A stretch of 64,000 bases of DNA. It comes from Deltaproteobacteria bacterium (lineage in GTDB: Bacteria; Myxococcota_A; UBA9042; PHBI01). Location of the stretch: contig SBGO01000716.1 of assembly GCA_006226565.1 (NCBI GenBank), positions 307 through 64,306 of the forward strand, given 5' to 3'. Both the position numbers and the translations under genes were made by a program. Shown piece after piece: positions 4,444 through 29,995 of this stretch. The number at the start of each line of letters is the position of its first letter. Within the stretch, counting starts at the first letter, position 1. The notes beneath the pieces are model-generated. The model was not told the origin of the DNA, searched no databases, and was given only the letters and a program-made list of their open reading frames with translations.

Positions 4444-5969
4444 CTCCATCCCCCCGCCGCGGCCCAGTCCCGGAACACGTGGACGGGCTCGCAGACTGCG
4501 TGCAGCCCGGTTTGACCGCGCTTGCCGATCTGGACGCCGTGGAAGCGGGTGCCTGTCTCGCGGGCGAGCTCGACGGAGCGGACGAGCTGCGTCGGAGCGG
4601 GCCACTCGCCGTCGCTGACGAAGACGACGTCGGCCTTCCGCCACGCGCTCTCCTCGAGTCGGGAGAGCACCCTGGTCAGGACGCCGACTTCGTCGTTGCC
4701 GCCGCCGAACGAGAAGCCCAGGAAGGAGAGCAGCCGGCCGACGCCGTCCGGCGACAGGTCGAGCTCGTGCTCGAGCACTTGGCCTGGTCCGCTGTAGGCG
4801 TAGAGGAAGCACCGCCGCTTCTCGGCGTGCGCGGTGCGCGCCGCCTCGAGGACGATGGCCTTCGCCACCTGCTCTGGGAGCCCGTGCATCGATCCGGATG
4901 TGTCGATGATCGCGATGATTGGTCCGCGCTCGGGCCTTGGTCGCTTCCGCTCGACCTCGACGTGGTCTTCGCGCGCCACCCAGGAACGAACCACCTCGAC
5001 ACCTTCTACGCGGTATGCCAGCAGGGCGCGCTCCGCCCGTCGTGCGTGCCAGGCGAGTCGGAGCTTCTGGTGCCCGAGCATCACCGCCTCGATCGGGAGC
5101 ATCCGGGCGATCTCGCCGCTGCGCTCGATGCCTCGAGTCTCCGCGGGAACGAGGGGTGTCGGGACCTCGTGAAGTTCCTCTTCGAGGCGGCGCACCGGCT
5201 CGAGGATCGTCTCGGCGACGGATGGCCCGTCGTCCGTGGCGTGGAGACGGCCGAGCGCGCGGACGATGTCGCGGAGCTGGGGGAGCTTCTCGACGAGGTC
5301 ACGGAGGCGCAGGAGGTCGAGCCATCCCGTGTGCTTGAGGACGCCGGTCGACAGGTCCCAGCCGCGGCCGAGCATCTGTCCGAGATCTCCGAAGACATCC
5401 GCGATCTCGGTCCACGCGCGGGCGCGCTCGCCCCACGTCGCCGTCATCTTCGGGTCTGCGGCCATGGCGCGTGCGGCGATCTCCCGCTCGGCCGCCGCCC
5501 GCAGCCGTTGTATGACGTCGTCGTCGAGCTGGACTGCACGGACGGCGCGCTTCTCGCGTCGCGCTCGCGCGGCCTCTTCCTCCGCGTGTCGGACGCGCTC
5601 GACCTCCTCGAGCTCGCGCAGCCGGTCGGCGACCTGGGAGCGAAGCTCGACGTCCTGGCGTCCGAATGCCTCCAGGATGTCGGCCATCAGTGCGTCGACG
5701 AGTTCGGGTTGGTCCCTGCAGAACCGCGCCAGCCCCATGTCCGACAGCGCTTTGCGAACAGGAACGTCGAGTGGTGCGTCGGGCCAGGTCCCGGGCGTGG
5801 GGAGCCGTCCGGCGAGGAGGGCGTCGTACCACGCACGCACGCCCTCGACGCGCTGCTCCAGGGTGCCGATGGGGAGCGTGACGACCGCCGGCACGACGTG
5901 CAGAGGGCAAACGTCGAGGAAGGCGTAGCGGCGCTCCAGCGCGCCAGCTTCGAATCCGGCCGCCATCAT
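4440..5969 (-). CDS. von Willebrand factor A (VWA) domain protein, ViaA-like partner of the adjacent AAA ATPase
   Basis: C-terminal half has the MIDAS motif IIAIIDTSGSM (DxSxS). Its start ATG overlaps the stop of the upstream ATPase gene as ATGA. Confidence 0.7.
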   Translation of the reverse strand: MMAAGFEAGALERRYAFLDVCPLHVVPAVVTLPIGTLEQRVEGVRAWYDALLAGRLPTPGTWPDAPLDVPVRKALSDMGLARFCRDQPELVDALMADILEAFGRQDVELRSQVADRLRELEEVERVRHAEEEAARARREKRAVRAVQLDDDVIQRLRAAAEREIAARAMAADPKMTATWGERARAWTEIADVFGDLGQMLGRGWDLSTGVLKHTGWLDLLRLRDLVEKLPQLRDIVRALGRLHATDDGPSVAETILEPVRRLEEELHEVPTPLVPAETRGIERSGEIARMLPIEAVMLGHQKLRLAWHARRAERALLAYRVEGVEVVRSWVAREDHVEVERKRPRPERGPIIAIIDTSGSMHGLPEQVAKAIVLEAARTAHAEKRRCFLYAYSGPGQVLEHELDLSPDGVGRLLSFLGFSFGGGNDEVGVLTRVLSRLEESAWRKADVVFVSDGEWPAPTQLVRSVELARETGTRFHGVQIGKRGQTGLHAVCEPVHVFRDWAAAGGWS

Positions 5970-7651
5970 CGACCTCGCGACGGCGTCGCCTCCGGCCTGA
6001 TCTGCAGAGTCTTCGGTTCGCCGTTGGCTGAACGTGCGTCTGGATTCTGCTCACGTGGGAGGCCGTCGAAGCCCTCGCGAAGCTTGGCGACGCGCGCCAG
6101 CAGCGTGTCGACCTCTTGTCGTGTGCGCGCGAGGGTTTGCGCCGCTGGTCCAACAAACTCTGGTGTGACCCAGAGGTGCTCGCGGATCTCGGCCTCAAGT
6201 GAATAGACGTGCGCGTGCAGTCGGTCGCTGTAGCTATCCACATCGGACATGAGCCCATCCAGCTCGCGTATGCATTGGTCGATGTAGAAACCCTTGTGGC
6301 GAGTCGGTTCGAGGAGCGGCAAGAGGCCAATATCCTCCATCAGCCAGTTGCTTTGGTCCGCGAGGTAGGCATCGCGTCCGGACCAGTGCGGGAACTCCTG
6401 CAAGCCGTAGTTGCGATCGTTTACGTAGAGTGTGTCGAGTTCATTCCGAGTGAACCCACGGCCACCGTTCTTCCGGTCGGTGACCTTTGTTCGGTTGTAG
6501 CTCCGCCCGTTCTCGTAGGCTTCGGTCGGAGCGAGGAACAACGGTTTCGAGTCACGGCGGGCCTGTGCCATGCCCTTCGTTTGCGTCGTGTGCTTCCCAT
6601 CCACCGCCTTGAAGAGGGGACGACCGCTGCTGTCCCGCATCTGAGACCGACTGTCCCTGTCCGCTTGGAGTCGCGCTTCCCAGGACACGACGATAGTTGT
6701 GAGGCGCGACGGATCCATTGCGGCGGAGGCGCCGACGCGCGCGGCGTACCAGTCGTAGGCCTTCTCCCGTGCTTCGGGGGCGTCCCACACGCAGTGCTGG
6801 AGCAGCCAGCAGTCCCAGATAGAGACCCGCGTTCGGCCGTTCGTCACAGCCGAGACTTGGAGAAGCTTCACGATCTTCCGCCATCGGCGGTCCGAGACCG
6901 GGATCTGTTCCGCGGCGCACCAGTCGCGGAGGTCGCAGAGCAGGGCGACGACGTCTTCCGGAACCTCGACCGCCTCAGCCGCCCCCTGAATCGTCTCGAG
7001 CTCGTGGCGGCTGAGCAGGAGGTCGCCCGGCACGTTGAGGGTCGCCTGGCCCCTCAGGCCGAGGAGAGCAGGGAAGCCGTCCTTGGACACCGGCCCGACG
7101 TGGAGCCGGAGCAGAAAACGGTCGAAGAGGGCGTCGAGCTCCTCGCCTTCGGGAAGCTCGTTGCTGGCCCCGATGACCGCGACGAGCGGCGTCCGCTCTC
7201 GAACGGCGCCGTTGTCGAACTCACGCTCGTTCAGGAGCGTGAGCAGCGCGTTGAGGATGGCGCTGTTCGCCTTGAAGATCTCGTCGAGGAACGCGACGGA
7301 GGCCTTCGGGAGATACGCGTCCGTCAGGCGCTCGTAGCGGTCTTCCTCGAGGCCCTTGATGGACAGGGGCCCGAAGAGCTCCTCGGGGACCGTGAAGCGC
7401 GTCAGCAGTCGCTCGAAGTACGTCGACCCGTCGAAGGCCAGATGAAGCCGGCGTGCGACGAGGCTCTTCGCCGTCCCTGGCGGCCCAACCATCACGAGGT
7501 GCTCGCCGGCGAGCGCGGCGAGCAGCGCCAGGCGGACCGCGACGTCGCGCTCGACGAGGCCCTCCGTGAGCGCATCGCGCAGCGCCCGCAGCTTCTTGAC
7601 GAGGCTCTCGACCTTCACGGGGGCCCGCGTCGTGTCCCGGGTGTCGTTCAT
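5966..7651 (-). CDS. MoxR/RavA-class AAA+ ATPase
   Basis: Walker A VMVGPPGTAKS, Walker B AFLDEIFKA and sensor VIGASNELP. The roughly 250-aa C-terminal region is not recognisable. Confidence 0.75.
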   Translation of the reverse strand: MNDTRDTTRAPVKVESLVKKLRALRDALTEGLVERDVAVRLALLAALAGEHLVMVGPPGTAKSLVARRLHLAFDGSTYFERLLTRFTVPEELFGPLSIKGLEEDRYERLTDAYLPKASVAFLDEIFKANSAILNALLTLLNEREFDNGAVRERTPLVAVIGASNELPEGEELDALFDRFLLRLHVGPVSKDGFPALLGLRGQATLNVPGDLLLSRHELETIQGAAEAVEVPEDVVALLCDLRDWCAAEQIPVSDRRWRKIVKLLQVSAVTNGRTRVSIWDCWLLQHCVWDAPEAREKAYDWYAARVGASAAMDPSRLTTIVVSWEARLQADRDSRSQMRDSSGRPLFKAVDGKHTTQTKGMAQARRDSKPLFLAPTEAYENGRSYNRTKVTDRKNGGRGFTRNELDTLYVNDRNYGLQEFPHWSGRDAYLADQSNWLMEDIGLLPLLEPTRHKGFYIDQCIRELDGLMSDVDSYSDRLHAHVYSLEAEIREHLWVTPEFVGPAAQTLARTRQEVDTLLARVAKLREGFDGLPREQNPDARSANGEPKTLQIRPEATPSRGR

Positions 7652-7928: not shown

Positions 7929-8321
7929 TCATGTCGTTTCGTCTTTGGCTAGTTCGTTGTCCATCAGCGCCAGCTCTTCATCCGACCACCGACGCAGCTC
8001 ATCGAGGAAGCGCAGTGCGGTCTCTCCTTTGGCTGTGATCTGGTAGGCGACCCCAAGCGGCCGCGTCTCGAGCACTCGCCGGTCGATCAGGCCATGGGTT
8101 TCGAGGTGCCTCAGGCGTTCCGAGATCATCTTCTTGCTCGCCCCACCGACCATCCGCGCGAGGTCATTGAACCTTACGGGCTCGTCTTTCAGGTGCCACA
8201 GGATTGACCCGGTCCACTTCCCGCCAAGCACGCGCATTCCCCTCTCGATCGCGCATGGCTCTGTGCATGCCTCAACGGCGATTTTCCGGCCGCCGTCATC
8301 ACTCTCGATTCGGGCGTCCAT
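7929..8321 (-). CDS. HxlR-family winged-helix transcriptional regulator
   Basis: CAIERGMRVLGGKWTGSILWHLKDEPVRFNDL...GLIDRRV is a typical HxlR/MarR-like wHTH. It is divergent from the quinone reductase gene. Confidence 0.8.
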   Translation of the reverse strand: MDARIESDDGGRKIAVEACTEPCAIERGMRVLGGKWTGSILWHLKDEPVRFNDLARMVGGASKKMISERLRHLETHGLIDRRVLETRPLGVAYQITAKGETALRFLDELRRWSDEELALMDNELAKDETT

Positions 8322-9054: not shown

Positions 9055-9587
9055 CCACGTTCAAGCTACAGGCGGGTCATCGCTTCCCCACCCTCGAGGT
9101 GTCCGGCGAGGACGGCGTGCGCGACCTTTCGAAGCCGCTCGGCAGCTGCGACTGGATGATGGTGGTCGTCTATCGCGGTCGGCATTGTCCCATGTGCACC
9201 CGGTACCTCAACAAGCTCGGCGCGTTCATCGCCGAGCTCGCCGAGATCGGGGTCGAAGTGGCCGCGGTCTCGGGCGACAGCCAGGACCAGCTGGCTCGCC
9301 ACCGGGACGCGCTCGACGTGGCGTTCCCGCTCTTCCACGGCCTGTCCGTGGCGCAGATGAAAGCGCTCGGCCTCTACGTCTCCGACCCGAGGTCGCCGCA
9401 GGAGACGGATCACCCGTTCGCCGAGCCGGGGCTTTTCGTCATCAACGAGCACGGGACACTCCAGGTCGTTGACATCTCCAACAATCCATTCGTGCGACCG
9501 GAGCTGAACACGTTGGTCTCGGGGCTACGATGGATCCGCGATCCGGAAAACAACTATCCCATCCGTGGGACGCACCCGTACGAATGA
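9051..9587 (+). CDS. Redoxin/AhpC-TSA family thiol peroxidase-like protein
   Basis: The HCPMC motif sits in a thioredoxin-fold context (VVVYRGRHCPMCTRYL...LFVINEHGTL). ATGA overlap with the upstream MdaB-like gene. Confidence 0.6.
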   Translation: MTTFKLQAGHRFPTLEVSGEDGVRDLSKPLGSCDWMMVVVYRGRHCPMCTRYLNKLGAFIAELAEIGVEVAAVSGDSQDQLARHRDALDVAFPLFHGLSVAQMKALGLYVSDPRSPQETDHPFAEPGLFVINEHGTLQVVDISNNPFVRPELNTLVSGLRWIRDPENNYPIRGTHPYE

Positions 9588-9631
9588 GCTGACGCCGGCC
9601 ACCGCGCCGCCGCACCCAGACGGACCACGCA

Positions 9632-9670
9632 GAAACGCCCAGGCATTGCTGCATGGGCGTCTCGTGGCTC
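9632..9670 (+). repeat. 39-bp direct repeat, copy 1 (gaaacgcccaggcattgctgcAtgggcgtctcgtggctc); contains a hairpin cgcccaggc-attgct-gcctgggcg
   Basis: Identical to 14814..14852 apart from one base (A versus C). It lies between convergent gene ends. Confidence 0.8.
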
Positions 9671-9959
9671 AAATAGCATCTGCCTTAGGTTCCGCCAGGT
9701 TGCGGTGATTGCGTCTCGCAACCCCGCGTTGTCGCAGGGTCTTTCGATCTGTCGACCGGCGGGTCGAGTTTCGCCTTTGCGGATGAAGGGGCAGGGCGGA
9801 ACGCCGGGACGAACCGGCGCGAGGAGCCCTTCAGCTCCAAGGTTGCCCGCTGCTCGTGATCCTGCGCTCGGCCTGCTGAAGCTCTCGCAGAAAGTTACGC
9901 TTTGCGTGCCGTTGTGCGAGAGGTTCAGCAACGAACCGGCTGCGGCGGTGCGGACCGGG

Positions 9960-10916
9960 TCACTCCACGAGCTGACGAATCCAAGCGCGAATGGTCGCGG
10001 TGGCCTCCTCCAACGGGATGCGCGGTCCCCAGAACATCGGGGCGATCTTCGCGTAGGCGCGCATCACGTGCTCGCGCTTGTCGTCGTCCTCGAGGACGAG
10101 TGACGGGGCGTCCGCCCTCGGAAGCGCTGCGATGTCGCCTTGCGCCAGCATGTCCTCGGCGAGTGCGAGCGCGCTTGTCTCGATCGCCGGAAGCTCGCCG
10201 ACGGCACGCACGATGCGGGCGGCGTCCTCGTAGTGGCGGACGAAGCTGTCGGCCTCGATCTGATCGCGCCCGTAGCGGCGCGCCATCGCGTCGAGCTTCT
10301 CGAGCAGCGTGACCAGCGGATGCACGCACCGGACGGCGCTCGGGCGATTGTCGAGATAGTCGACCAGCATCCCCTGGCGCTCGAGGTAGACGTGCACGAA
10401 GGACGTGATCGCCATCTCGACGAACGGCACGACCCGCGCACGCCCGACCTCGAAGCGCACGAACGGGCTCATCGCGCTTGGCAGGTCGCTGACGAGCGCG
10501 CCCGGGTAGTGGCCGAGGTAGTCCGCCGTTCGCGCGTACTTGTCTGGCCGCGCGGCGTCGAGCGACGCAGGCACCCCCGGGATCGCGAACGCATCGGCGA
10601 GGGCGTTGTAGAAGGCGCGGCGCTGGGCGACCCGCCCCTTGTGCGCGCTCGTCCAGCTCGCCACCTCCGGGAGGCTCACGACCGCGCCGCGCTCGATCAT
10701 CAGGTCGAGGTCCTCGGAGAAGCGCTCGATGAGGCCGAAGCCTTTCGAGAGGCTCGTCCCACCCTTGAACCAGACCTCGAGCCCGGTCTGGTGCAGCGCC
10801 CACAGGCAGTGGGTGACCCAGTAGTCCTTCTCGACCAGCGCCGCGTCGATGCCAGTCTCGCGGGCGACGAGCCGTAGCAGCTGTGCGAAGTCGCGGTCGT
10901 CGTGGACGAAGGTCAC
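9960..10916 (-). CDS. AbiEii/AbiGii-family nucleotidyltransferase toxin (DUF1814)
   Basis: VTHCLWALHQ...WFKGGTSLSKGFGLIERFSEDLDLM matches the AbiEii NTase core. The GTG start at 10916 overlaps the antitoxin stop as GTGA. The longer 490-aa ORF is an upstream extension. Confidence 0.8.
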   Translation of the reverse strand: MTFVHDDRDFAQLLRLVARETGIDAALVEKDYWVTHCLWALHQTGLEVWFKGGTSLSKGFGLIERFSEDLDLMIERGAVVSLPEVASWTSAHKGRVAQRRAFYNALADAFAIPGVPASLDAARPDKYARTADYLGHYPGALVSDLPSAMSPFVRFEVGRARVVPFVEMAITSFVHVYLERQGMLVDYLDNRPSAVRCVHPLVTLLEKLDAMARRYGRDQIEADSFVRHYEDAARIVRAVGELPAIETSALALAEDMLAQGDIAALPRADAPSLVLEDDDKREHVMRAYAKIAPMFWGPRIPLEEATATIRAWIRQLVE

Positions 10917-11497
10917 GCGGCAGCGGCCTCTGCGAGGGACGCCTCGACGAGCGCCCGCGTCTCCTTCGTGCCGTAGGCTTCGGCCATCGCCAAGAGCCGG
11001 CCTCGGTCCCAGCGTCCGGCGCGCAGCGTATCGACCAACGCCGCCCGCAGATCGCTCAGGGCAGCGCCTGCTGCCTCGTGATGCTGCAGCAGGTCGATGA
11101 CGAACCACTCCGGCTTGGGCGCGTCCGGGAAGTAGACGCGGCGCAGGATGAAGCGTCGCCCGTCGAGCGTGAACTCCCCCGTCCGCTTGGTGTTGTAGAC
11201 GAGCGTCGCGGCGAAGACGGCCGTCGAGCCGAGTCCGAGCGCGTTCCAGCGCGGTGGGCCGGTGACGAGGAACGGCGCGTCGTCGAGGAATGCCCGCAGC
11301 AGCTCCTCGTCCGCGGCGGGGGCCGGACCGAAACGGCTGGGCGTCGGCGCGTAATAGAGCCCATGCGCCGCCATGCGCAGCTTGCCCTCGTGGACCAGCC
11401 GCCGGGCGAGCCGCGTGGGGTTCTCTCCCCATCGTCGCAGGTCGCGGGTTCGGTACGCCCGTCCAGGGGCGAGGTTGGGTTCGATGGCAGCGCTCAC
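10913..11497 (-). CDS. AbiEi-family antitoxin / transcriptional regulator (type IV TA)
   Basis: About 190 aa with an N-terminal wHTH-like region. It sits immediately upstream of, and is translationally coupled to, the AbiEii gene. Confidence 0.7.
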   Translation of the reverse strand: MSAAIEPNLAPGRAYRTRDLRRWGENPTRLARRLVHEGKLRMAAHGLYYAPTPSRFGPAPAADEELLRAFLDDAPFLVTGPPRWNALGLGSTAVFAATLVYNTKRTGEFTLDGRRFILRRVYFPDAPKPEWFVIDLLQHHEAAGAALSDLRAALVDTLRAGRWDRGRLLAMAEAYGTKETRALVEASLAEAAAA

Positions 11498-11589
11498 GTC
11501 AACTCCGTATGAATTCTACCGGAGAAATCATACAGTCGTAGGTGGCCGGTGGCAAGGTGGACAACCACTGCCTCGTTCGAGCCGGGGGG

Positions 11590-12426
11590 CTACGTCCGTC
11601 GTTCCCGTGGCGGCGGCGCGCAGTGAGCGAGGATGACCTTCCAGCCGTTCCGCTTCGCCGCGGCGTCTCGAACGAGGCTGGCGATCTCGCCGGGCTCGAC
11701 TCGATCATCGCCGGTCCCGAAGCTGTCGCCGAGCTCGGCTGCGACCGCGATCCGCTCGCGCACTGTGGCCGCGCGCTCGATCACGCGGGAGTACGCTTCG
11801 CACGCGTAGGCGAAGTTCTCCCGCTGGCGGAAGTCGATGCCGAGGAGCCACTCACGGCGACGGGTCTCGGCGAGGCCGACCGAGCGCCGCTTGCAGTTGT
11901 GGAAGATGTGGGCCACCTCGTGGACCACGAAGTCGTCGAAGGGATCCTCCTCCTCGAAGTAGGCGGGGGTCACGAAGCAGGTCGTGTCCTGGCTCAGCCC
12001 GACGAGAAGTGGCGCGTCCTCGGCGAGCAGCTCAGCCCCGATTCCACCGAGATAGAGGTTGGCGAGGTTCCAGGCCGTCCGGTGCCAAGAGGTCTCGGAC
12101 AACACGTCACCGATGTTGGACGCCGTCAGGAAGACGACGGACCGCTCGACCAAGGCGAGCACGGCGTCCTGCTCTGCGCGGGGAAACAGACCGCGGATCA
12201 TCGGCTCGGTCTTCCGGCGTGTGAGGGACGTCACGTCGAGCTCACGCGTCGCATACGATTGGGGCCGGGAGCTGGCACGCCTCTGGACCTCCGCGACGAG
12301 CGCAGCCCTGAGGTCCTTGTGCGCCGCCCGCGAGCACTCGATGATGTCGCGGCCGGGCCACGCGGTGCCGAGCGTGTCGGTGTCGCCAGTCCGAAGGTAG
12401 CGTTCGATCTCGCTCGCGATGCTCAT
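11590..12426 (-). CDS. Hypothetical protein with an HExxH motif (possible ImmA/IrrE-like zinc metallopeptidase)
   Basis: The only recognisable element is HEVAHIFHN, resembling HEXXH of ImmA/IrrE. Confidence 0.35.
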   Translation of the reverse strand: MSIASEIERYLRTGDTDTLGTAWPGRDIIECSRAAHKDLRAALVAEVQRRASSRPQSYATRELDVTSLTRRKTEPMIRGLFPRAEQDAVLALVERSVVFLTASNIGDVLSETSWHRTAWNLANLYLGGIGAELLAEDAPLLVGLSQDTTCFVTPAYFEEEDPFDDFVVHEVAHIFHNCKRRSVGLAETRRREWLLGIDFRQRENFAYACEAYSRVIERAATVRERIAVAAELGDSFGTGDDRVEPGEIASLVRDAAAKRNGWKVILAHCAPPPRERRT

Positions 12427-12448
12427 CTCGGCGTCGTTCCTCGTGGGG

Positions 12449-12892
12449 TCAGAAAGGGATGTCGCCGTCGTCCAGCGTGTATGTCACCGCGGCCCCATTT
12501 TCGAGAGCGACGGGCTCGAGCTCGTCCCACGTCGTCCCGAAGGGGAAGTCGGCGGACGTGAAGTCCACGATGCAGGCGAACTCGTCGTCCCACACGGCCG
12601 CGTAGCCATCATCGTCCTGGTTCGTCGAGGTCTCCGCAGGCTTCTTCCGCGATGGACGGTTTCGGAGCGTCGTCCGGAGCCTCTCGACGTACGTCGGGTC
12701 GAGCGTGACTCCGAGCAGCTCGAGCTCCCTCAGGGCGCACCCGAGGTCGACTCCGAACCACGTCGCGTAGGTCCTGCACAGGTTCTTGCCCTGGTACTTC
12801 GGGATCCAGTGACGCGCTGACTGTAGGCGGGCGGGCCGCGCCATCCGCTTCCGCCGTGGCGGCAGGATCTGCTTCTTCTTTCGTCGCCCCAT
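12449..12892 (-). CDS. Hypothetical protein with a highly basic N-terminus
   Basis: N-terminus MGRRKKKQILPPRRKRMARPARLQ. No recognisable domain. In an operon with the HExxH gene. Confidence 0.4.
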   Translation of the reverse strand: MGRRKKKQILPPRRKRMARPARLQSARHWIPKYQGKNLCRTYATWFGVDLGCALRELELLGVTLDPTYVERLRTTLRNRPSRKKPAETSTNQDDDGYAAVWDDEFACIVDFTSADFPFGTTWDELEPVALENGAAVTYTLDDGDIPF

Positions 12893-13078
12893 CTCGGCCT
12901 CCCGAGCGTGACGGTAGCGCGCTTCGTCCCGACTTCGTCAAGCTCGGGAGCGGGCCGCAAAGCTTCGGGCCGGTGACGAGGCGTCGTCGTATCCGATATA
13001 GATGAGCAATGAGGTGCTTGGCGCCGGGAGCCGCGTCACGCGGTCGGACGACCGAGGCCCATAGAGGACCATGCAGCC

Positions 13079-14455
13079 GTGACCACCGATCCTACCGGAT
13101 CCTCCGACGGCGATGCGGTGGCTGTGACCGTCGCGGCTGACGGTCGGCCGGTGGTGCGGTGCGCGATCTACACGCGGCAGTCCGTGGCCCATGGCAACGA
13201 GGACCTCACGTCCTGCGACGTTCAGCGGGAGCGGTGCGGCTACTACGTCAGCGCCATGAAGTACGAGGGCTGGGTCCTGCTCCCCGAGCGCTTCGATGAC
13301 CTCGGCGTCTCGGGCGCTACCCTCGAGCGGCCGGCCCTCGAACGCCTGCGTTCCCTCTGTGTACAAGGGCGGCTCGATGTCGTCGTCGTCACGCGGCTCG
13401 ACCGCCTGACGAGGCGCATGGCGGACTGGGCCCGCCTCTCGGACTGGTTCAAGCGGGCCGGTGTCGACCTGGTGATTGTCGACGGGAACGCGGGCGCCAG
13501 CGGACCGCTCGCCAGCCTCGTCAACAACGTCGTCGCCAGCTTCGCCGAGTTCGAGCGCGAGCTCGTCAGCGAGCGCCAACGCGACGCACGAGGGCGGGCC
13601 CGCGCCCGCGGTCTCCGCACGGCCGGTCGCGTCCCCCTCGGCTACGCGTCCGATCCCAACACGAAGCAGCTCGTCATCAACGAGCGCGAAGCACCCATCG
13701 TCCGCGAGTTCTTTGAGCGCTCCGCTGCTGGCGAGTCGGGCGCCCAGATCGCCGCGTGGGCGAACGCCGAAGGTCACCGGACCAAGGTCCACGCAGGCAA
13801 GGGCGGCGTCCTGTGGACGGGCAGGGCGGTCCTCCAGATCCTGCGAAACCCGCTCTACCTTGGCCGCCGTTCCCACCAGGCGGCCACCGTCAAGGGCGTC
13901 CATGACGCCATCGTCGACGCCAAGCTCGCTGAGCGAGCCCTTGACGCCATCGACGCCCGCCGGACACGCAGCCCGAGCTCGCGCGGGCGGGCGCCGAACC
14001 TTGACAACGACCCCTGGATGCTTCGCGGCATCCTCCGCTGCGGCGGCTGCGGCCGCCTCATGACGACCAGCGCGTCGGCCAGGGTCACCCTCGCGAACGC
14101 CGACGACGTCCCGCGCTACTACCGCTGTCGCGGTGAAGTCGGCCGGCCGGCCTGTCGTCCCGCCGTCCAGGTCGCCGCTCATCGTGTCGAAGGCCAGGTC
14201 ATCAGCCGGCTGTGCCTTCCCCAGTCCGTGTGGACCGACAACCCGAGGGCGCGCGCCTTCCTCCGGCTGCTCGCCCCCGAGTGGCCGCGGCTCGACACCG
14301 CCACGCGGAACCGCCTGGTCCGCCGCCTCCTGTGGACCATCACCTTGCACCCGCACAGGCGCTTTGCGAGCCTGACCGTGGACGAGCTCGGCGCCGACGC
14401 CCTCATCGAGGAGAACCCCGGCCTCGCCGCCGGGTTCCCACCTCGAGGCGTCTGA
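13079..14455 (+). CDS. Large serine recombinase (resolvase catalytic domain, recombinase domain and zinc-ribbon domain)
   Basis: Catalytic motif VRCAIYTRQS with DVQRERC, and a C-terminal Cys cluster LRCGGCGRL...YRCRGEVGRPAC. Confidence 0.85.
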   Translation: MTTDPTGSSDGDAVAVTVAADGRPVVRCAIYTRQSVAHGNEDLTSCDVQRERCGYYVSAMKYEGWVLLPERFDDLGVSGATLERPALERLRSLCVQGRLDVVVVTRLDRLTRRMADWARLSDWFKRAGVDLVIVDGNAGASGPLASLVNNVVASFAEFERELVSERQRDARGRARARGLRTAGRVPLGYASDPNTKQLVINEREAPIVREFFERSAAGESGAQIAAWANAEGHRTKVHAGKGGVLWTGRAVLQILRNPLYLGRRSHQAATVKGVHDAIVDAKLAERALDAIDARRTRSPSSRGRAPNLDNDPWMLRGILRCGGCGRLMTTSASARVTLANADDVPRYYRCRGEVGRPACRPAVQVAAHRVEGQVISRLCLPQSVWTDNPRARAFLRLLAPEWPRLDTATRNRLVRRLLWTITLHPHRRFASLTVDELGADALIEENPGLAAGFPPRGV

Positions 14456-14813
14456 GCCCGCGTCTCGGGACCGCACTGGTCGGTCTCAGAGCAGAGGTGG
14501 ATACTATTCGCGCCCCGGGAGCCCAAGACGGACCGCGACGGCGAGACGAAGAAAGCGAGGGCCGGATGTCCCGTTCTGAGCTTGCTAACCTTGTGCTCTG
14601 GGGCTGCTAAACGCCTCAGAGGCGTCTCCAAGCGTCTCTCGGGCCACGAGGGACCAGAGAACCCGGTCGACCGACCGGTCAGCGTCGGTCCGGTGCTCTG
14701 ACGCTCGGACCACCAAGATCCCACGCCGCGCCCAGCCACCAGCGCAACCTCGCGAACGAACACCAGAAACACGAAACCCCTCGCCAGCGACGCTGACGAG
14801 GGGCGTGTAAAGC

Positions 14814-14852
14814 GAAACGCCCAGGCATTGCTGCCTGGGCGTCTCGTGGCTC
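14814..14852 (+). repeat. 39-bp direct repeat, copy 2 (gaaacgcccaggcattgctgcCtgggcgtctcgtggctc)
   Basis: 38 of 39 identities with 9632..9670, same orientation. Confidence 0.8.
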
Positions 14853-15085
14853 CGCAAAGGCACGGCGTGACCAACGCCTCGACGCGAGGGCAGGGGACGG
14901 GTGCAACTCGGGGGCAGCAAGGAACATAGAACGACACAGTATCTCAAAGGGAGCGCCCGACGGGCTGCAGAATGGGAGCCCACCGTCACCATGTTAGGAG
15001 CGGTTTCCGGACACGCTGTCGTGCGCCATGACGCGGGCGTGTGATATCGCTACAAGGTGCGTCGATCACGCCTGCACGGGAGCTC

Positions 15086-18000
15086 ATGGTGTCGCGACCG
15101 ACCCTTGTCATCCAGACCGTCTACTTTCACCCGAGTGATCGCCCGCTGGCTCAGGACCTCGGGGGGCTGCTTTACGAGCACCTGACGCGACCACGTGCCG
15201 ATCGCCTGGCGTTCGGCGGTGGAATCCCGGTCCTCATCGCGACTGATACAACTCACGTCGACACGGACGTCGCCTCGCACCTGCTCATCGTGCCGGTCTT
15301 GGGCGCCAGTTCCTTCAGAGACGAGGACTGCCGGCAGGTCGCGAAAGCCAGCGTCCAGACCTGGCACCAGCACCTCGGTCCTGGCCACGTCGTCCCGGTA
15401 TTCGCCTCGGCGAACTGGCGCAGCGAGGAGTCCGAATTCCCCGGGAAGTCCGTGTTGACGCGCCTCTACTCCGATCAGGACGGGACCTGGACAAACACCC
15501 TGATCGAGGTCGTCCTCGCCGCCTGCCGCTTGCTCGCCGGCCCCGCGCTGTCGCTGAGGCTCTTCATCTCTCACGCGAAGCGGGACCTGGCGGGCACAGG
15601 TGACGTCGCGGCGTTGATTCGGGACTTCGCGAAGTCGGCGACGACGGGGCTTGCCTTCTTCGATACGACGGACCTCGAACCCGGTCACGACCTGGCCCAT
15701 CAGCTTGCGACCGCCACGCAATCGGGGGTCTTCGTAGCCATTCACAGCGACACGTACGCGGCCCGCTCGTGGTGCCAGCGCGAGCTCCAGTGGGCCAAGG
15801 AGAACGCGCTCCCAACCCTCACTGTCGAGGTTATGAAGGCTGGTGAGCCGCGCAGCTATCCGTATAGCGGCAACGGACCCACGCTCACCTGGAGGGACAG
15901 TCCGCCAACGGTCGTCCTCCAAGCATTCATCGAGTGGCTCAAAGCGGCGCACTTCAAGCAAGAGGCCGAGCGCATGGCGCACGACCTTCCCCAGCACGTC
16001 GTGCTCACGCGTCCGCCGGAGTTGTTCGATCTCGCGTTCGGGAAACTCCGATCCAAGGGGCCCCGCGTCGTCCTGCACCCCGATCCTGAGCTATCCGCCA
16101 ATGAGCGGCAGGTCCTGCGTGAGGCCCGACCACGCCTTCGCCTCGTGACACCTCGCACCCTGTTTCGCCGCTTGACCCCTAGCGACACCGTGGAGCCGCA
16201 GAAGCTCCCCCTCTACAGGAGGCAGATCGCCCTCTCGTTGTCCGACAGCCCCGCGGCCAACGGCGACGCCGGCTTCACGTCCGACCACATCGATGACGCG
16301 ATCACGTACCTGGCCCGAAGCATAGTCGCTGCAGGCGGTGCAATTGCGTACGGCGGCGACTTCCGCAGTAGCGGCTTCGACGAGCTGCTTGCCGAGCTTG
16401 TCGTCGCCTATAATGAGTCTGGCGTCGACCGTGCTGACTACCTTCATAGCTACCTCGCCGCGCTGATACCCTCCGACAAGATTCCCGAAGACCTTGCGCT
16501 CACCGACTGCTCTCTGAATTGGACGCCGAGATTCGCGAAGCTGGCGCGCCTGAGCTGGCCCGACGAGAAGCCGGGCGCCCATCGCAGCGCGCTCTACTTC
16601 TCCGACATGCGCCGCGTTATGGGCGAGGCCATCTTTGCCCGCGTCGCACTGGCCGGGCAGGACCGTCCGCGGAGTTCAAGGGAACCCGGCTACGGCGGAC
16701 CATTCCCGGGAGTGGTCGAGGAGGCGTGGCGAGCCCTGGAACAGCGGAAGCCGCTCTACGTGGTGGGGGGCTTCGGTGGCGCAGCCGCGCTCGTGGCCGA
16801 GCTGCTGACCTCGGACGAAACCCCACTGCTCATGCGGCGCGAGACCTTTGGGGGCGAAGAGTACTCGGAGTTCCAGGAGCGCTGTGACCTGGTTGTGGCG
16901 GATCCGGACACTGTGAGGCTCGGGCTCCCGCCGGACATGGCCGCACTGTCGGCAGCCGTGCGCGCGTTCGGCAAGGGGCACCTCGCGTCGGACGCCGCGT
17001 CGCTCGCTTGGAACGGCCTGACCGTCGTCGAAAACGAGGAGCTGTTTCGGACCCGCGATCCAGTGGCGATCACCCAGCTCGTCATGAAGGGGCTGCTCGC
17101 CTGCGTCGCGAAGGAAGATGCGGACAAGCTCAAGATCGAGCTAGTGTGTGGCAGCATCACCCAGGCAGAAGAGGCCGACGCCATCGCTATCGCGGCGTTC
17201 GACGACGTTCGCATCGGCGGAGCGGGCGCCTCCCTCGACGCGATGCTCTCCTACCTTGTCACCAGCGCCGTCGCGCAACGCGAGCAAATCGTCGACATCG
17301 AGAGCCCTGACATCGACGCCGAGTGGCTCGTCATCCCCGATCTTGGCAGCGTCGGGGCCGGCGATCTCTCCCCCATCCCTGAGGCCATCGAACGGGCCGC
17401 AGCTGGCGTTGCGAACATCGCGACCCGCCACCAGTTTCGTCGCATCGCAGTCGTCGCCTTCGGCGGGACCGTAGTCGACCTGAGCATTGCGGCGGAGCGC
17501 ATGATCCGCGGCTTTCGCGACCTCCACACCTCGACGGTCATCCAATGGTTCGAGCTCGATCCAGGCCGATTCGATGACCTCAGACAGATGTTGGAGAGCC
17601 AGGACAACGTCGCGCTGAGCACGCGTGTCCTGCCATCGCCACCGCTCGAAGAGACGGCCACGTCGCGTGATCGCGATCTGGTCGTGACGGTGCGTTACGA
17701 GGGCGGACACCTCCATACGACGCTGCTCCCACCTGCCGGAACGGCCGCCGCGGTCGCGTGCGTCCGGCCGCTGGCGATGGACGCCTTCGCCGACCTCGCG
17801 AAGTCCGACGCGCCCCGTGCGCCAACGCTCGGCCAGCTTGATGCAATCGGTGAGAAGCTCGCTGAAGCGCTCTTCGACGAGGCCGGGCACGACCTGTTCG
17901 GACGCGGCAGGCTGGACCGCGTCCTCGTTCAGCACGACCTCGACAGCGCGCCCCTTCCATTCGAGGCGCTCCGTGTTGCAGACCATCGCTTCGCCCTCGA

Positions 18001-18837: not shown

Positions 18838-19425
18838 ATGACCACGCGCCACAAGGTGTTCATCAGCTACCATCACGCTCTGGACCAGCAGTACAAGAAC
18901 GACTTGGTCCGTTACTACGCCGACCGGGTGGACGGATTCGTCGATCGGTCCGTCGGGATCGGGGATATCGACGATTCCGTGTCCACAGAGCGCATCGCGC
19001 AACTGATTCGCGAGAAACACCTGAGGGACTCGACGGTGACCGTTGTGCTGATCGGGGCTGGAACGTGGAGACGCAAGCACGTCGATTGGGAGATTTACAG
19101 TAGCCTCCGCGCTACAAGTGCCAGTCCTCGAAGTGGTCTTCTCGGCATCTTGCTCCCTACGTATCAGATTCCATGGGGGGCGACTGGAACCCAACAGTGG
19201 ACCCAGCCTGCTACCGCCTACTACTGGCCGAACAACATCCCTCCGCGTCTCTGGGACAATGTGGCGACGGGCTTCGCAAAGGTGCGGCCGTGGCCTTCGT
19301 CCGGCCAGCAGCTGCAGGAGTGGATTCACGAGGCGTACCTGCGACGTGACGCCAACCCGGCGCCAACACTGGCCCGTGACCGATTCCGAAACAACCGGCC
19401 CGATGTGCAGAGCGGTTGGCAGTAG
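18838..19425 (+). CDS. thsB: ThsB-like TIR-domain protein (DUF1863-type), paralog 1
   Basis: HKVFISYHHALDQQYKND...STVTVVLIGAGTWRRKHVDWEI closely matches Bacillus cereus ThsB (RVFFSFHYQD...TSVTCVLIGSQTFNRRWVRYEI). Confidence 0.75.
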   Translation: MTTRHKVFISYHHALDQQYKNDLVRYYADRVDGFVDRSVGIGDIDDSVSTERIAQLIREKHLRDSTVTVVLIGAGTWRRKHVDWEIYSSLRATSASPRSGLLGILLPTYQIPWGATGTQQWTQPATAYYWPNNIPPRLWDNVATGFAKVRPWPSSGQQLQEWIHEAYLRRDANPAPTLARDRFRNNRPDVQSGWQ

Positions 19426-19448: not shown

Positions 19449-19991
19449 ATGACCTACCGGCACAAGGTCTTCATCAGCTACCACCACCAGAACGACGAGG
19501 CCTATCGCCACGAGTTCGAGGAGCGATTCGCCTACGAGGGCGGTGTCATTGTCCCGAAGGCGGTCTACGACGGCCAGATAGCCTCAGGATTGAGACCCGA
19601 GACGATTCGGCGAACGATTCGGGAGCGCAACCTGCGCGACAGCACAGTGACCGTCGTCTTGGTCGGTTCGGAGACTTGGAAGCGCAAGCACGTCGACTGG
19701 GAGATCGCGTCCAGTCTACGCAACACGCCGTATAAGAAGGCTTCCGGCCTCCTCGGAATCCTGCTCCCAAGCTACCCAGGGTCCGCCACTGACTACGACC
19801 CGCATACGATTCCGCCACGCCTCTGGGACAACGTCCTATGCGAATACGCGGAGGTTCACGACTGGACGAAGGGCCGATCAATCATGACGCACCTGATTCA
19901 CGCGGCGTTCCTTCGACGCAAACGCCTATTGCCGGCGAAACCCCGGCCCCGGTTCAAAATCAATCGACACGGCGAGCGATGGTGGCCGTGA
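19449..19991 (+). CDS. thsB: ThsB-like TIR-domain protein, paralog 2
   Basis: MTYRHKVFISYHHQNDEAYRHEF...STVTVVLVGSETWKRKHVDWEI. The start is taken at ATG 19449. Confidence 0.75.
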   Translation: MTYRHKVFISYHHQNDEAYRHEFEERFAYEGGVIVPKAVYDGQIASGLRPETIRRTIRERNLRDSTVTVVLVGSETWKRKHVDWEIASSLRNTPYKKASGLLGILLPSYPGSATDYDPHTIPPRLWDNVLCEYAEVHDWTKGRSIMTHLIHAAFLRRKRLLPAKPRPRFKINRHGERWWP

Positions 19992-20164: not shown

Positions 20165-20779
20165 TCAATCACTTGGCTGGTAGAGATTGCAGGCGATATG
20201 CAGGATCTCGACGGTCGCGCCCGACGAGTGTCGGTGCCGGCCAAGGAATGACCACGGTAGGCTGTGGTCCTTCGTCTCTTCTACATCGTGGCAGCCAGCG
20301 GGATCGGTGAAGTGCTGCCGTGTGTCCTTCACCCGCCCTGCGACGTCCGGCTTCTGGCAGAACCCGATGCAAAGGGCCCGCTTCTCGGCACCAGAGCAGT
20401 AGCCGAGGACCTGGGTGGTGCCGTCGCAGTGATACTTGGGCCCGCGGTCCAGCTTGCATTCGCCGAGCATCCTGAAGCGGCCGGCCACGAAGTGGCTGAT
20501 GACCAAGTCGACGTGGCCGTTGACGTGGGGTTCGGCCGTCGTCGGCACACCACCCTGGCTGAGGAGATCGGCGAGGTTGGTGGAGAGCTCCACCTCGCCG
20601 GCCTTCGCCAGCAGCTTTCGACGGTCCTCCAGCTTCTGAAGGCAGTGCCGAACCGCGAGCTCGGCGGCTTCGCAGAAGGCGTCCTCGGTCTGCGCGCACG
20701 CCACGCGGTGGAAGTCGGGCATGAAGGTTTTCACCAGGCCGATGTAGTCCTCGGCCGTCATCCCATCGGGCAGCGTCAT
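20165..20779 (-). CDS. PD-(D/E)xK-fold nuclease-like protein; last gene of the DISARM-like operon, in the position usually held by a PLD nuclease
   Basis: Putative motif GHVDLVISHF...RMLGECKL (D...ExK). Its ATG at 20779 shares one base with the TAA stop of the upstream giant helicase gene. Confidence 0.45.
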   Translation of the reverse strand: MTLPDGMTAEDYIGLVKTFMPDFHRVACAQTEDAFCEAAELAVRHCLQKLEDRRKLLAKAGEVELSTNLADLLSQGGVPTTAEPHVNGHVDLVISHFVAGRFRMLGECKLDRGPKYHCDGTTQVLGYCSGAEKRALCIGFCQKPDVAGRVKDTRQHFTDPAGCHDVEETKDHSLPWSFLGRHRHSSGATVEILHIACNLYQPSD

Positions 20780-23700
20780 TAGCGTCTCCCCTCGCCTCGG
20801 AGCCATTGAACTCCAATCGTTCGCGCTCCGTCGCGCCATCCTTCACCAGCGAGGCCCTCGGCGCCTCCGAGACGATCGAGGGCCTGCTCCCAGGACATGG
20901 GGGCCGGTGGAGTCCGCTTCAGATCCAGGAACACGCGCTTGATGGTGCCAGTCTGGGCCAGTCGTTCGATGGCCAGGAGCGCGTCTCCCTCGTCGGCGTC
21001 AAACTGACCCGCCGCTGCGATGGCGTCGCCCAACGTCAGCGGCTGACCCTCGCTGTCATCGAGGCGTTCGAGAAGCAATCTTGCGATGGCAACAGCCTTC
21101 TCGTTTCGGGTCTGGCGCTTCACCTCGTCCAGCGGCCCGCCGCCGTGTCGGACCCACTCCATCGTCCGCTCCGGCGTTCGCAGATCCCGCGCCGTCAGCT
21201 CCACCACGCGCCACGCGACGCCGCCCTCGCGCAGTGCCCTGCGGATGGCGCGATCCCGCCGCAGGCGGCTGCCGGTATGGAACGCGGCGCCGTCCACATA
21301 GACGAGTACGGTGGTGCCGGTCACGCGGAAGTCGGCCTGGCTTATGGCCGGGCCGTCGAGCTCGGGGCCCACGGGGACCTGCTTCTCGACATTGATGCCG
21401 TGCCGCTCGAACAGGCGCAGGAACTTCAGCTCCAGCGGGGAGCCGACCCCAGCGTCGTAGGCCTCGAGCCATGGCTTGGGGTCGTCGCTGTCGCCCAGCT
21501 CGCCACGAAGCACCTCGGGCGCCGCCAGCGCGAGGCCTTCGAGATCCGGCATGATGTGCGGCCACGACAAGTGCTCGTGGTGGCGCTGGTTGGCGTAGGA
21601 CTTCAGGCAGCGGTAGCAGGCGCTTTCGCACTTCGGGTGGTCGAGATGTTCTATGGTTCGGCGCGCCACCAGATGCAGCTCGTCGACACAGCGATCTAGG
21701 AAGCCGCTGCCGCCAACGGCCGCGTCGATCAGGGTCAGGGCGCCCAGCTTGCGTACACCGTCCTTGCGGCGTTCCTCCCACAGGGGTTCGAGCTCGAACT
21801 CGATCTCCGGCCCGTCGAGCATGTAGAGCTGACGCAGCCCCGTCCGCAGGGCATAGCCCAGCGAGTAGCCCCACCGCTTGTAGTCGGCCTCGTCGTAGTC
21901 GCGCGGCAGGACAACGGTCACGCGGAGAGTCGAGGCGGGCGTAGCGGTCGTGATCGCTGCCGGGATCGGAGGCTGGCCGCTGCGCTGGCAGCCCGAAGCA
22001 TGGCCGAAGGCGTCGGGTCCGCTGGACTTGCGTGCCTTCCTGCGCCCCTTCTTGCCGCTGTCGTCGTCGGGCACCGAGAGCGACCTGCCGCAGGCAGGAC
22101 ACAGGTAGAAGCCGCGCCCGGCGTCGTGCAGCATCGGCTTCCCATTGCGCAGGTCGGCCTCGCTTGGGGGCTTCCACTCGTTCACCCACCGTACGGTCTC
22201 CTCGGCCCGCAGCTCGACGTGCCAGCCGGTGGCCAACCGCCTCCGGGCGACTACACGACCGTCGCGCTGTGGGTGGCAGGTCACCAGCGAGCCTATCGAG
22301 AACCGGTCCTCCTCTTGGAGTACCGGTGTGTCGTCTCGAATTGCCAGGAACCCGCCGTACTCGTGGCCCGGGTAGCCGTGGCCGCCGCCCACCGTGTCGT
22401 CCGAGCCACAGCGTGGGCACGCCGGTGTCTGAGCGTCGTAGCGAAGGTCGCACCCCTTGCAACGCACGTAGATCCAGTCGGGGTCGGTGGACTTCGGGTT
22501 CCAAGGCGAGGCGAGATCCAGACCCACGACGCGCCAGCGGTGGCCACGGGCGTGGACCGGTGCCTCCGGCTGGTACTGCGCGATGCCGAAGCGTCGCGCC
22601 ACCGTGATGGGGTCCTCTTCGTGCTCGTCGCCCCACAGTCGCAACGTGCAGGGCGCTGAAGGGAACTCGTAGCCGGGGAGGATGCCGAACTCGGCGAACC
22701 GGCGCATGGGGTGCCCGCTGCCCCGGTCGTCCGCATCGCCGTCGAAGCGGTCGTCGCGCAAGCCCAGGATCTTCCGCTTCAGGTCCTGAGCGTGCATGGC
22801 CGAGCGGTCGCCCTTGCCCAGTTCGTTCCAGCGGTCGATTGTCTCCTGCAGCTTGAGAATCTGCCGCCGCACGCGGTCGAAGAGGTCCCGGATACGGTCC
22901 GGCAGCCCCTCGAGTACCTGGGCAAGGGCGTCGGGCTCGCCGAGCCCGGCCGGGTCGAGCACGTCGTCGCCCCACGCGTCGCGTGCCAGGTTCACAGCGT
23001 GGGGGAACTGCGCCACGATCGCGGCGATGAGCTCGTCCACTTTCGCCTGGTCGACCTCGCCGCGGATGTTGATGTACTCGGCCATCCGCCCAGCGAGGCC
23101 GGGCTCGGCGGCGCCGAACGCGAGCGCGTGCAGGTGCCGCAGCACCACGTCTCGATTGCCCAGTCCGACGCCGGGTGCTGGCACCTCGCCGGCAATCATC
23201 TCGGCCGGCTTGTCGAAGAAGTACCCATCGTGCGGTGTGCTTCGTGCGTAGCCGAGCACGATGCCAACCCGTGACCGCCGCCCAGCACGGCCCCCACGCT
23301 GCGCATAGTTGTCGGGACGGGGCGGGATGTTGCGCATGACCACTGCGTCGAGGCCCCCCACGTCGATCCCCATCTCCAGGGTGGGCGAGCAGGCCAGAAC
23401 GTTCGTCGCGGCGCGCCGGCTCGTGCCGCTCCACCCCGGCGGCGGCCGGAACCCGGGCGGTGGAGCCTTGAAGTCCTCCTCGAGCTCGATGCGGTCTTCA
23501 CCGGTGATCTGCGCCGTGTGCTCGCCCGCGGAGAGCGGCATCAGGTCGCTCCTCTGGATGCGCTGGACATAGCGATTGCGCTCGATCTCCTCCCTCGGCC
23601 ACTGCTCCAACACGCCGTGGCAGCTCGGGCACGGGCTGCCTGCGGCCGCCCATGGAATACGCACGTTGCAGACGGAGCACCGCATCCGCTCCTCGGGCTT

Positions 23701-26448: not shown

Positions 26449-26482
26449 GTCCGCTCCGTGCTTCTAAAGGCCATCTGCGGGC

Positions 26483-26591
26483 TTCTATCGGACACGATCT
26501 CCGGGTGGCCGATAGAAAACCATTGGGCGTTCAGCGGGTTGTGCCCCCGGCGGGGCCTCCTATCGGCCATCGTCGTCCTCGTGGCCGATAG
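26483..26591. promoter_or_regulatory. Two related palindromes upstream of the giant helicase gene: IR1 ttctatcgg-N17-ccgatagaa (26483..26517) and IR2 ctatcggcca-N12-tggccgatag (26560..26591)
   Basis: They share the core CTATCGG(N)CA...TG(G)CCGATAG. IR1 lies 35 to 69 bp upstream of the start at 26448. IR2 begins at the stop codon of the Schlafen-like gene. Confidence 0.4.
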
Positions 26592-28251: not shown

Positions 28252-28270
28252 CGTTCACCCGGTTCGCACC

Positions 28271-29962: not shown

Positions 29963-29995
29963 TCAGCGGCTCCTCTCCATCTTGGCGTGTTCGGC

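Follow-up and report, generated by a model that had tools for sequence, protein, structure and literature searches.

Staphylococcal cassette chromosome (SCC) elements, including SCCmec, are non-phage, non-conjugative islands that large serine recombinases (LSRs; CcrAB, CcrC) move into the extreme 3' end of a conserved gene, which is left intact. Direct repeats containing integration-site sequence accompany each unit, and tandem composite arrays include recombinase-less units. These features recur in an islet of 5,182 bp (positions 9671-14852) on contig SBGO01000716.1, which belongs to a rare Deltaproteobacteria (Myxococcota-like) metagenome-assembled genome otherwise met only as one Logan contig. 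The 64,000-nt stretch of this contig that was analysed is referred to as the window. Comparison of sequences across related loci suggests, with a probability of roughly 0.8, that the islet is an integrated mini-island moved by its own LSR, a member of a family built from a P' arm, a toxin-antitoxin module, the LSR and a 287-nt conserved non-coding element (NCE), and that the primary target of the family is the 3' end of tRNA-Asn.

The islet differs from SCC in several respects. Its LSR is not a Ccr orthologue: the NCBIfam scores were 99.9 bits for CcrB, 57.4 for CcrC and 48.7 for CcrA, against cutoffs of 900, 900 and 700, and the score for XisF was likewise far under its cutoff. The target is tRNA-Asn instead of rlmH, the neighbouring gene encodes AhpC, the islets are far smaller (2.6-7 kb), they end in the 287-nt non-coding segment with two terminators, and their hosts are Myxococcota. 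By analogy, SCC (Ccr) elements appear to be the closest functional counterpart, without the islet being an SCC member.

The tRNA-targeting islands and the tycheposon-like tandem islands also resemble the islet in that they insert at tRNA genes, restore the 3' end, form arrays with partial repeats and carry defence and toxin-antitoxin cargo. They use tyrosine integrases, whereas the islet uses a serine recombinase, and in the islet the duplicated segment consists of the trailer and terminator with just 4-6 nt of the tRNA end, not of the portion from the anticodon to the 3' end. Both kinds lie side by side in one related locus (L019). The LSRs of phages and of integrative and conjugative elements (phiC31, Bxb1, TP901-1, A118; XisF, SpoIVCA) have in common with the islet enzyme the Resolvase, Recombinase and zinc ribbon domains and a site near the recombinase gene; a 2-bp core is suggested by one islet relative (TC in L032). 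In contrast to these systems, the islet lacks phage and conjugation genes and has long repeats, as its target would carry the same terminator module. The cargo resembles AbiE type IV toxin-antitoxin systems in its full-length matches, in the overlap of the two genes in one operon and in a promoter-like site upstream of the antitoxin gene. It differs in that the pair appears to be a near-obligate yet replaceable passenger beside the recombinase, with a second AbiE type or a Doc-type pair in relatives. Full-text literature searches turned up no description of a tRNA-Asn-targeting LSR family or of a fixed association between an LSR and AbiE, and this serine-recombinase islet family is apparently undescribed.

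Architecture of the islet

The islet is bracketed by two same-strand copies of a 39-mer, GAAACGCCCAGGCATTGCTGC(A/C)TGGGCGTCTCGTGGCTC, at 9632-9670 (A) and 14814-14852 (C), which differ only at repeat position 22. No match of this kind arose in 100 dinucleotide-preserving shuffles; the pair is far beyond chance, and the initial annotation had described both positions and the single mismatch correctly. With G+C contents of 61-76% along the window, true reading frames were picked by third-position G+C. The features are as follows.

9632..9670, no strand assigned: left 39-bp repeat, A variant, the putative attL host-side arm; it matches the position of the native hairpin-GCTC-tRNA trailer in locus L084
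9635..9660, minus strand: left copy of hairpin 2, 11-bp stem with one mismatch and 4-nt loop (RNA fold of 9620-9674, minus strand, -28.1 kcal/mol)
9671..9686, plus strand: element-interior junction motif AAA-TAGCATCTGCCTT (P' arm), directly after GCTC, recurring at related loci
9671..9959, no strand assigned: left-end non-coding arm, 289 nt, with one GCGTCTC at 9711
9960..10916, minus strand: AbiEii nucleotidyltransferase toxin, 318 aa (Pfam PF08843, 2e-19; PADLOC AbiEii, 3.6e-49, full length; third-position GC frame)
10913..11497, minus strand: AbiEi antitoxin/regulator, 194 aa (PADLOC AbiEi, 9.8e-52; weak Pfam AbiEi_4)
11527..11555, minus strand: sigma-70-like promoter match TTGCCA-17-TATGAT upstream of AbiEi (consensus match only)
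11590..12426, minus strand: 278-aa protein with an HExxH motif (HEVAH), variable cargo; its large Myxococcota family is uncharacterised
12449..12892, minus strand: 147-aa protein with basic N-terminus and acidic C-terminus, variable cargo (sequence; no homologue in related islets)
13079..14455, plus strand: LSR, 458 aa (Pfam PF00239, 2e-31; PF07508, 8e-13; PF13408, 7e-8)
14566..14852, plus strand: NCE, 287 nt; a sequence-conserved 5' block from TGTCCC is followed by a variable spacer, the two terminator hairpins and a tail that leads to GCTC (alignment; nhmmer E=6e-56)
14622..14638, plus strand: pair of GCGTCTC copies with 10-bp spacing, found in every NCE at about -231/-221 relative to the junction
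14777..14803, minus strand: hairpin 1, a predicted intrinsic terminator followed by UUUCGUGUUUC (covariation; RNA fold; a consensus scan flags a minus-strand terminator)
14814..14852, no strand assigned: C variant of the 39-bp repeat (right copy), which forms the 3' end of the NCE and of the islet (14852) and contains hairpin 2 (14817-14842), the tail CTCGTG and GCTC

The gene content given by the initial annotation (AbiEii, AbiEi, an HExxH protein, a small basic protein and the LSR) was retained. The extent of AbiEii was revised to 9960-10916 on the minus strand: its GTG start overlaps the AbiEi stop codon (GTGA), and a longer mechanical open reading frame (ORF) was discarded. The stop of the LSR lies 358 nt before the right repeat.

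Junctions and flanking repeats across the family

LSR homologues with 57-67% identity were compared, using three long contigs and 69 metagenome loci retrieved with the family alignment. A comparison of the 2 kb downstream of each LSR with everything upstream revealed same-strand direct repeats of 39-315 nt in eight of the nine loci with enough flank (L011, L013, L020, L021, L022, L023, L028 and the window) and no comparable inverted matches. Homologues of the recombinase are thus flanked by similar repeats, as the initial annotation had proposed to check, and its reading of an integrated cassette with an abortive-infection toxin-antitoxin module is supported by these recurrent GCTC-ended repeats together with the apparently unoccupied syntenic site described below. 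What it had missed is that the 39-mer is only the tip of a 287-nt element, that the locus is linked to tRNA-Asn and that the islet belongs to a recurrent family.

The ends of the islets are discrete, with GCTC-delimited junctions at more than 15 loci. Every NCE ends in GCTC. In left copies, GCTC is followed by three bases and then by TAGYATCTGCCTT or close variants (NNN-TAGYATCTGCCTT). This P' motif occupies the same position in L013, L015, L020, L021, L028, L032, L041, L043 and L077, it occurs in variant form in L011, L012, L022, L030 and Archangium L096, and it persists where the LSR is only 42-47% identical. In right copies, unrelated, locus-specific host DNA follows immediately after GCTC. 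A dyad symmetry between the NCE tip and the P' arm was also looked for by eye, and nothing convincing was seen.

An NCE is missing from the left junction of L032, where TC is all that the two junctions have in common. The left and right tips of L011 and L022 have different sequences, with GCTC as their one shared stretch. The reaction therefore does not need long repeat identity, and we infer that the crossover occurs at a 2-bp core, most simply the TC of GCTC. The initial annotation had raised the caveat that serine integrases leave about 2 bp of identity. As a description this agrees with the three loci; as an objection to an integrated cassette it loses its force if the module at the end of the element is present a second time as the host-side arm, which would account for the 39-bp identity.

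Alternatively, the crossover could take place in the hairpin palindrome itself, the 39-mer being a dyad site with a TTGC centre and the direct-repeat sites acting in the manner of resolvase or SCC-type sites. The size and the dyad symmetry are those of a serine-recombinase site, with 16 and 23 nt about the loop centre and a non-palindromic TG. We consider this placement very unlikely. Identical 38-nt tips are followed by different host DNA right after GCTC in L018, L019, L020, L022, L032 and L046, L032 has a left junction without the hairpin, the left and right tips of L011 and L022 differ, and the identity with tRNA-Asn stops exactly at GAGC. The hairpin sequence is moreover free to covary, unlike a binding site that is read as sequence.

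Complete left NCEs of a neighbouring unit were found in L015, L020, L021, L023 and L028, and tandem units are thus common. In L013 a different family of 171-nt repeats with three tandem copies, ending in ...GAAGCTC, flanks the LSR islet (7965-8135, 11786-12299, 12268-12432 and 15519-15684). The same locus contains a second AbiE pair without a recombinase and with its own direct repeats of about 160 nt. Both observations suggest a cassette-like accretion.

The tRNA-Asn target and a probable unoccupied site

The tRNAs detected with ARAGORN at eight related loci were all tRNA-Asn(GTT). At L023/L024, L073, L077 and L081 the 3' end of an opposite-strand tRNA-Asn, ...GGAGCC(A), runs into the two-hairpin NCE tip at GAGC. 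The NCE of L019 joins, at GAGC, a 43-nt piece that perfectly matches the 3' part of tRNA-Asn, and the intact gene follows 1.4 kb further on; such an arrangement is what a later insertion into the same tRNA leaves behind. The family as a whole thus behaves as a tRNA island, with five loci fused at GAGC, in contrast to the copy in the window. Two distant LSRs (about 38% identity) lie about 360-440 nt downstream of a same-strand tRNA-Asn (L058, 6467-8021; L074, 9565-10216). The CCA of this tRNA precedes AAATCTTGCCTT, a sequence similar to the P' motif, and members of a sister subfamily may enter the same tRNA in the opposite orientation.

The left 39-mer of the window begins 44 nt past the stop codon of AhpC and is also in terminator position downstream of the minus-strand AbiE operon. 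Two loci from another species, L084 and L085, encode the nearest AhpC homologue for which the gene context is available; it is 86% identical to that of the window and stands in the same order HxlR-Flavodoxin_2-AhpC. After the AhpC stop they read GACCCACTCGAAAGTGGGTC-TCGAAA-GCTC/CTCAGCACGGACTCGAACCGCGGA, that is, a hairpin, a tail, GCTC and the acceptor and T-arm of a minus-strand tRNA, whose acceptor strand equals that of the L074 tRNA-Asn. The L084 trailer and the left 39-mer share TGGG..TCTCG..GCTC. Judging from this synteny, L084/L085 probably show the site in its unoccupied state, at the point that corresponds to the left 39-mer of the window, in a different species and on a contig that ends 24 nt into the tRNA. 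Relatives lacking the segment, which the initial annotation had proposed to look for, were accordingly found as hairpin-GCTC-tRNA in another species and not as an empty site of the same species. Three assemblies break inside the tRNA of this site, as expected of a variable or repeated site. The AhpC relatives in L086, L088 and L091 are followed by unrelated genes.

The origin of the left 39-mer can be read in two ways. It may be the native tRNA-Asn trailer of the lineage, serving as the host-side arm. The islet may also be what we propose, with its left 39-mer as the last NCE remnant of an older related islet in a tandem array, so that the repeat records the decay of that array. The complete left NCEs of the neighbouring units in the five tandem loci favour such a relic, as does the 38/39 identity, which suggests the same NCE lineage in view of the variation of NCE tips between subfamilies; the tip is also the most conserved part of the NCE. 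Nothing resembling hairpin 1 or the 5' block is present upstream of the left copy, however, and this copy occupies the position of the native trailer hairpin of L084 with which it shares the motif given above. We regard the relic as a real possibility, if the less probable one.

The conserved non-coding element

The alignment of loci showed that the right 39-mer is only the 3' tip of the NCE. The NCE profile matched about 20 unrelated loci at E<1e-10. In all of them the NCE has the same strand as the LSR, and in most it follows the LSR at a distance of 100-730 nt (about 1.5 kb in L028 and about 4.3 kb in L019). A second NCE copy is often found upstream of the LSR.

The 11-bp hairpin stem of the 39-mer pairs fully in the right copy; the left copy has one mismatch. 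In minus-strand orientation the 39-mer runs from GAGCCA, which corresponds to the two final acceptor bases, discriminator and CCA of a tRNA, through CGAG and the hairpin to UUUC. Across 13 diverged NCE copies the two hairpins carry compensatory (double) changes in 14 of 23 pairs. When the alignment is read on the minus strand, about 37 G.U cells stand against 4 A.C cells, and the hairpins are therefore read as RNA in the direction of the tRNA. With their U-rich tails on this strand they have the form of intrinsic terminators. The second caveat of the initial annotation, that the repeat forms a strong hairpin in terminator-like positions, is hence borne out by the covariation and by the G.U asymmetry; the dispersed repetitive extragenic palindromic (REP) element that it had derived from this caveat is not, with two copies in 64 kb. 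By its sequence, the NCE tip provides a replacement 3' end and tandem terminators for the target tRNA.

A structured RNA over the whole NCE was rejected, since the covariation is limited to the two terminator hairpins. Outside of them, zero covariation is combined with strong conservation of the primary sequence, and the 5' block is a candidate protein-binding region. The GCGTCTC doublet is likewise a candidate protein-binding site. On the plus strand, GCGTCTC was counted six times in the 1,143 non-coding nt of the islet (9657, 9711, 14460, 14622, 14632 and 14839), against 0.34 expected in this post hoc count, and may be the binding motif of the recombinase or of an accessory protein. Between the LSR stop and the NCE, GGTGGATACTATTC at 14496-14509 is an inverted near-copy of the left-end AAATAGCATCTGCC and is shared with L023. 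The L020-type subfamily has an inverted GGCAGATA at -90 within the NCE, opposite TATCTGCC at +7.

The invariant 5' block, the tip next to GCTC and the inverted GGCAGATA/TATCTGCC motifs would also be compatible with a more far-reaching and rather improbable role of the NCE, namely that of a dedicated recombination or accessory site by which recombinase-less cassettes (toxin-antitoxin, defence) are stacked behind tRNA-Asn, the 39-mer being the minimal docking site. If true, a stacking NCE would give the Myxococcota a counterpart of integrons or cassette arrays that works with a serine recombinase, and it would explain why the 39-mer alone survives at the left border.

Proposed course of integration

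We propose that the family recognises the 3' end of tRNA-Asn, where the junction at GCTC of the plus strand is GAGC in the tRNA, a stretch that comprises the final two acceptor bases, the discriminator and C74. The 2-bp crossover would occur at the TC of GCTC. The NCE would then rebuild the end of the tRNA (GAGCCA in the window) and supply two tandem intrinsic terminators, which would end the tRNA transcript and shield the convergent LSR gene. The 39-mer can thus be understood as a module of tRNA end plus terminator. The right copy would be the own tip of the element and the left copy the host-side arm, whether native trailer or relic of an earlier islet. The circle junction attP would read ...GCTGC(C)TGGGCGTCTCGTGGCTC/AAATAGCATCTGCC and the empty-site junction attB ...GCTGC(A)TGGGCGTCTCGTGGCTC/CGCAAAGGCACGG, the stroke marking the point of exchange. 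The AbiE pair would stabilise the islet as an addiction module, an abortive-infection module or both. Repeated integration beside the tRNA would produce tandem arrays.

No tRNA lies in the window and the right flank does not resemble one; the copy found there is therefore not at an intact primary site. The most economical reading of the sequences is that the islet entered at the boundary between AhpC and tRNA-Asn, and that later insertions or a rearrangement parted it from the tRNA, as happened on a small scale in L019.

Several points weigh against this account. The 38/39 identity between host arm and element arm is not explained by the chemistry of serine recombinases and needs a relic, a conversion or the capture of an arm. 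The 64-kb window contains no tRNA, and the 76 nt that adjoin the islet on its right scored 18 in a comparison with tRNA, against a null mean of 21.8. A decayed tRNA-Asn at 14853-14930 was rejected, with a local-alignment score under those of the shuffled and genomic controls. The contig of L084 includes just 24 nt of the tRNA, whose Asn identity is taken from the acceptor and T-arm alone. A scan of metagenome records found no empty site of the same species, the count of the 39-mer in the source genome covers the 64-kb window, no directionality factor was identified, and no circular form or excision was observed.

We infer that the islet is still mobile today. It might instead be a fixed fossil, whose LSR no longer moves it or serves inversion or resolution, with the repeats kept as useful terminators. 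This would suit a right junction without a tRNA, the lack of any circular form or polymorphism and the location of both hairpins where termination is useful. The LSR ORF has nevertheless its full length with the catalytic motif and three domains, both junction motifs are intact and the repeats differ by a single base, which makes a fossil unlikely in our view.

Copy number of the 39-bp repeat

The copy count covers the 64-kb window and the scanned collections. No third copy, even a degenerate one, was found in the window with blastn-short at low stringency and 200-nt flanks, and with the same flanks the similarity of the surroundings of the two copies stopped at 39 nt. A scan for the hairpin core with a free loop, using one genome per species for 185,579 species, returned nine unrelated single palindromes, one of them in Yaniella with different flanks. 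The exact 24-nt core had zero matches in 241 million metagenome records. Rfam gave zero matches at E<=1 for 9400-15200 of the window.

An accidental flanking of the cassette by a dispersed REP or terminator-type element that is unrelated to the recombinase would be suggested by a strong hairpin unit in terminator-like positions, and only 64 kb of the source genome enter the count. Such an element should be present in many copies at unrelated intergenic loci of the same genome. Two copies were detected in 64 kb even at the sensitivity of blastn-short, the core has no metagenome match, and the genomes yielded only the unrelated palindromes mentioned above, by which a REP shared across species was rejected. 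The right copy moreover belongs to an LSR-linked 287-nt element conserved in about 20 loci, and the conserved interior motif of the family comes directly after the left copy. A REP origin is accordingly very nearly discounted. The cassette is not an integron cassette (attC) either, having no tyrosine recombinase within it and a repeat that consists of a tRNA end and a terminator.

Directly outside both 39-mers the window reads CGCA (9628-9631 and 14853-14856), which has a chance of about 1 in 150-250 or may be a trace of an origin from repeat plus islet. As a target duplication these 4 nt are too short to be told from chance.

The large serine recombinase

The LSR has the composition of the enzymes of LSR elements, with a resolvase-type catalytic domain and its serine nucleophile (catalytic motif RCAIYTRQS) followed by the Recombinase and Zn_ribbon_recom domains. 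The public annotation P0001 (423 aa, start 13184) starts past YTRQS and drops the catalytic serine. The 458-aa ORF is, to judge from the sequence, the functional form, and its length agrees with those of the homologues. Among solved structures only the catalytic domain found a match (TP901-1, E=6e-16). The nearest phage LSRs are less than 40% identical, and only one IMG/VR contig contains a 38% relative; a phage origin of the islet was rejected on these grounds.

Cargo genes

AbiEii and AbiEi are adjacent, overlapping genes as in known AbiE systems. A toxin-antitoxin pair adjoins the LSR in 9 of 11 loci whose LSR is at least 57% identical. The AbiE type of the window (minus strand) is also present in L012, L023/24 and L071, whereas L011, L013, L015, L020, L022, L032 and L077 contain the unrelated AbiEi_1/AbiEii type on the plus strand. 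In the complete genome of Archangium violaceum (CP069338.1, islet at about 12.617-12.620 Mb), with an LSR of 47% identity, a MazE-like/Doc pair fills the slot within the same junction architecture. Such an interchangeable pair suggests a stabilising (addiction) role, and a benefit by abortive infection is possible.

Neither the HExxH protein nor the 147-aa protein has a homologue in any related islet locus, and L012 corresponds to the islet of the window minus these two genes. They were thus rejected as conserved parts, and the conserved core comprises the P' arm, the toxin-antitoxin pair, the LSR and the NCE. The HExxH family has more than 2,400 proteins of about 60% identity without a Pfam model and is common in Myxococcus and Archangium. 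In M. xanthus a member sits after a DUF2169/Tox-PAAR cluster (type VI secretion effector), and the HExxH protein could be an immunity or toxin-related protein.

Neighbourhood of the islet

On its left side the islet adjoins the HxlR-Flavodoxin_2-AhpC genes. Immediately left of these genes, 5966-7651 encodes a MoxR-type AAA+ ATPase of the MoxR-vWA-beta-propeller ternary-system class, and there the G+C content falls from about 0.72 to about 0.63. The right neighbour is a protein of 1,202-1,218 aa with TIR, SLOG (LD_cluster2) and CHAT protease domains (15041/15089-18697), with which a long defence island begins that extends to an SNF2 helicase and is followed by a phage-like region. A link of the islet family to the CHAT protein was rejected, the right-hand CHAT proteins of the window and of Archangium being unrelated (E=0.95). 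Two paralogous ThsB-type TIR genes follow (18838-19425 and 19449-19991), from which a 90-nt direct repeat at 19005/19616 stems. Together with the TIR-SLOG-CHAT gene they look like a variant of Thoeris-like signalling defence.

The minus-strand defence block at 20165-37887 encodes a 1,889-aa DEAD/Helicase_C/MZB helicase, a Schlafen-AlbA_2 and HATPase_c_4 protein, GmrSD, a 1,564-aa Eco57I/MmeI-like methylase and an SNF2/ResIII helicase, a composition resembling DISARM or BREX. Three tandem paralogous genes of about 2.5 kb, 68-80% identical and with internal 81-nt repeats, occupy 41500-49135; the last of them has P_proprotein and FGE-sulfatase domains, and a 24-nt tandem repeat (41000-41118) precedes them. 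The phage-like region (49188-63683) contains the terminase large subunit gpA (52901-54922), an N6/N4 methylase, a 1,079-aa primase and DUF2924 (63036-63683). DUF2924 often adjoins serine recombinases, and a second recombinase may lie just past the end of the window.

Implications

The islet family is widespread in metagenomes of Myxococcota type and is present in the cultured Archangium violaceum. Its anatomy is testable in each of its parts, namely the target at the tRNA-Asn 3' end, the replacement terminators borne by the element, the slot for a toxin-antitoxin pair and the 287-nt end. Serine integrases are prized as tools for genome engineering, and an enzyme of this class that has a defined attP and whose natural target, the acceptor and T-arm of tRNA-Asn, is short and universally conserved would be of direct use there. 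For serine-recombinase elements in general, the locus indicates that long direct repeats can be reconciled with the rule of a 2-bp crossover. For the Myxococcota, the family illustrates how small defence and toxin-antitoxin cargo may be seeded at the edge of a large defence island.

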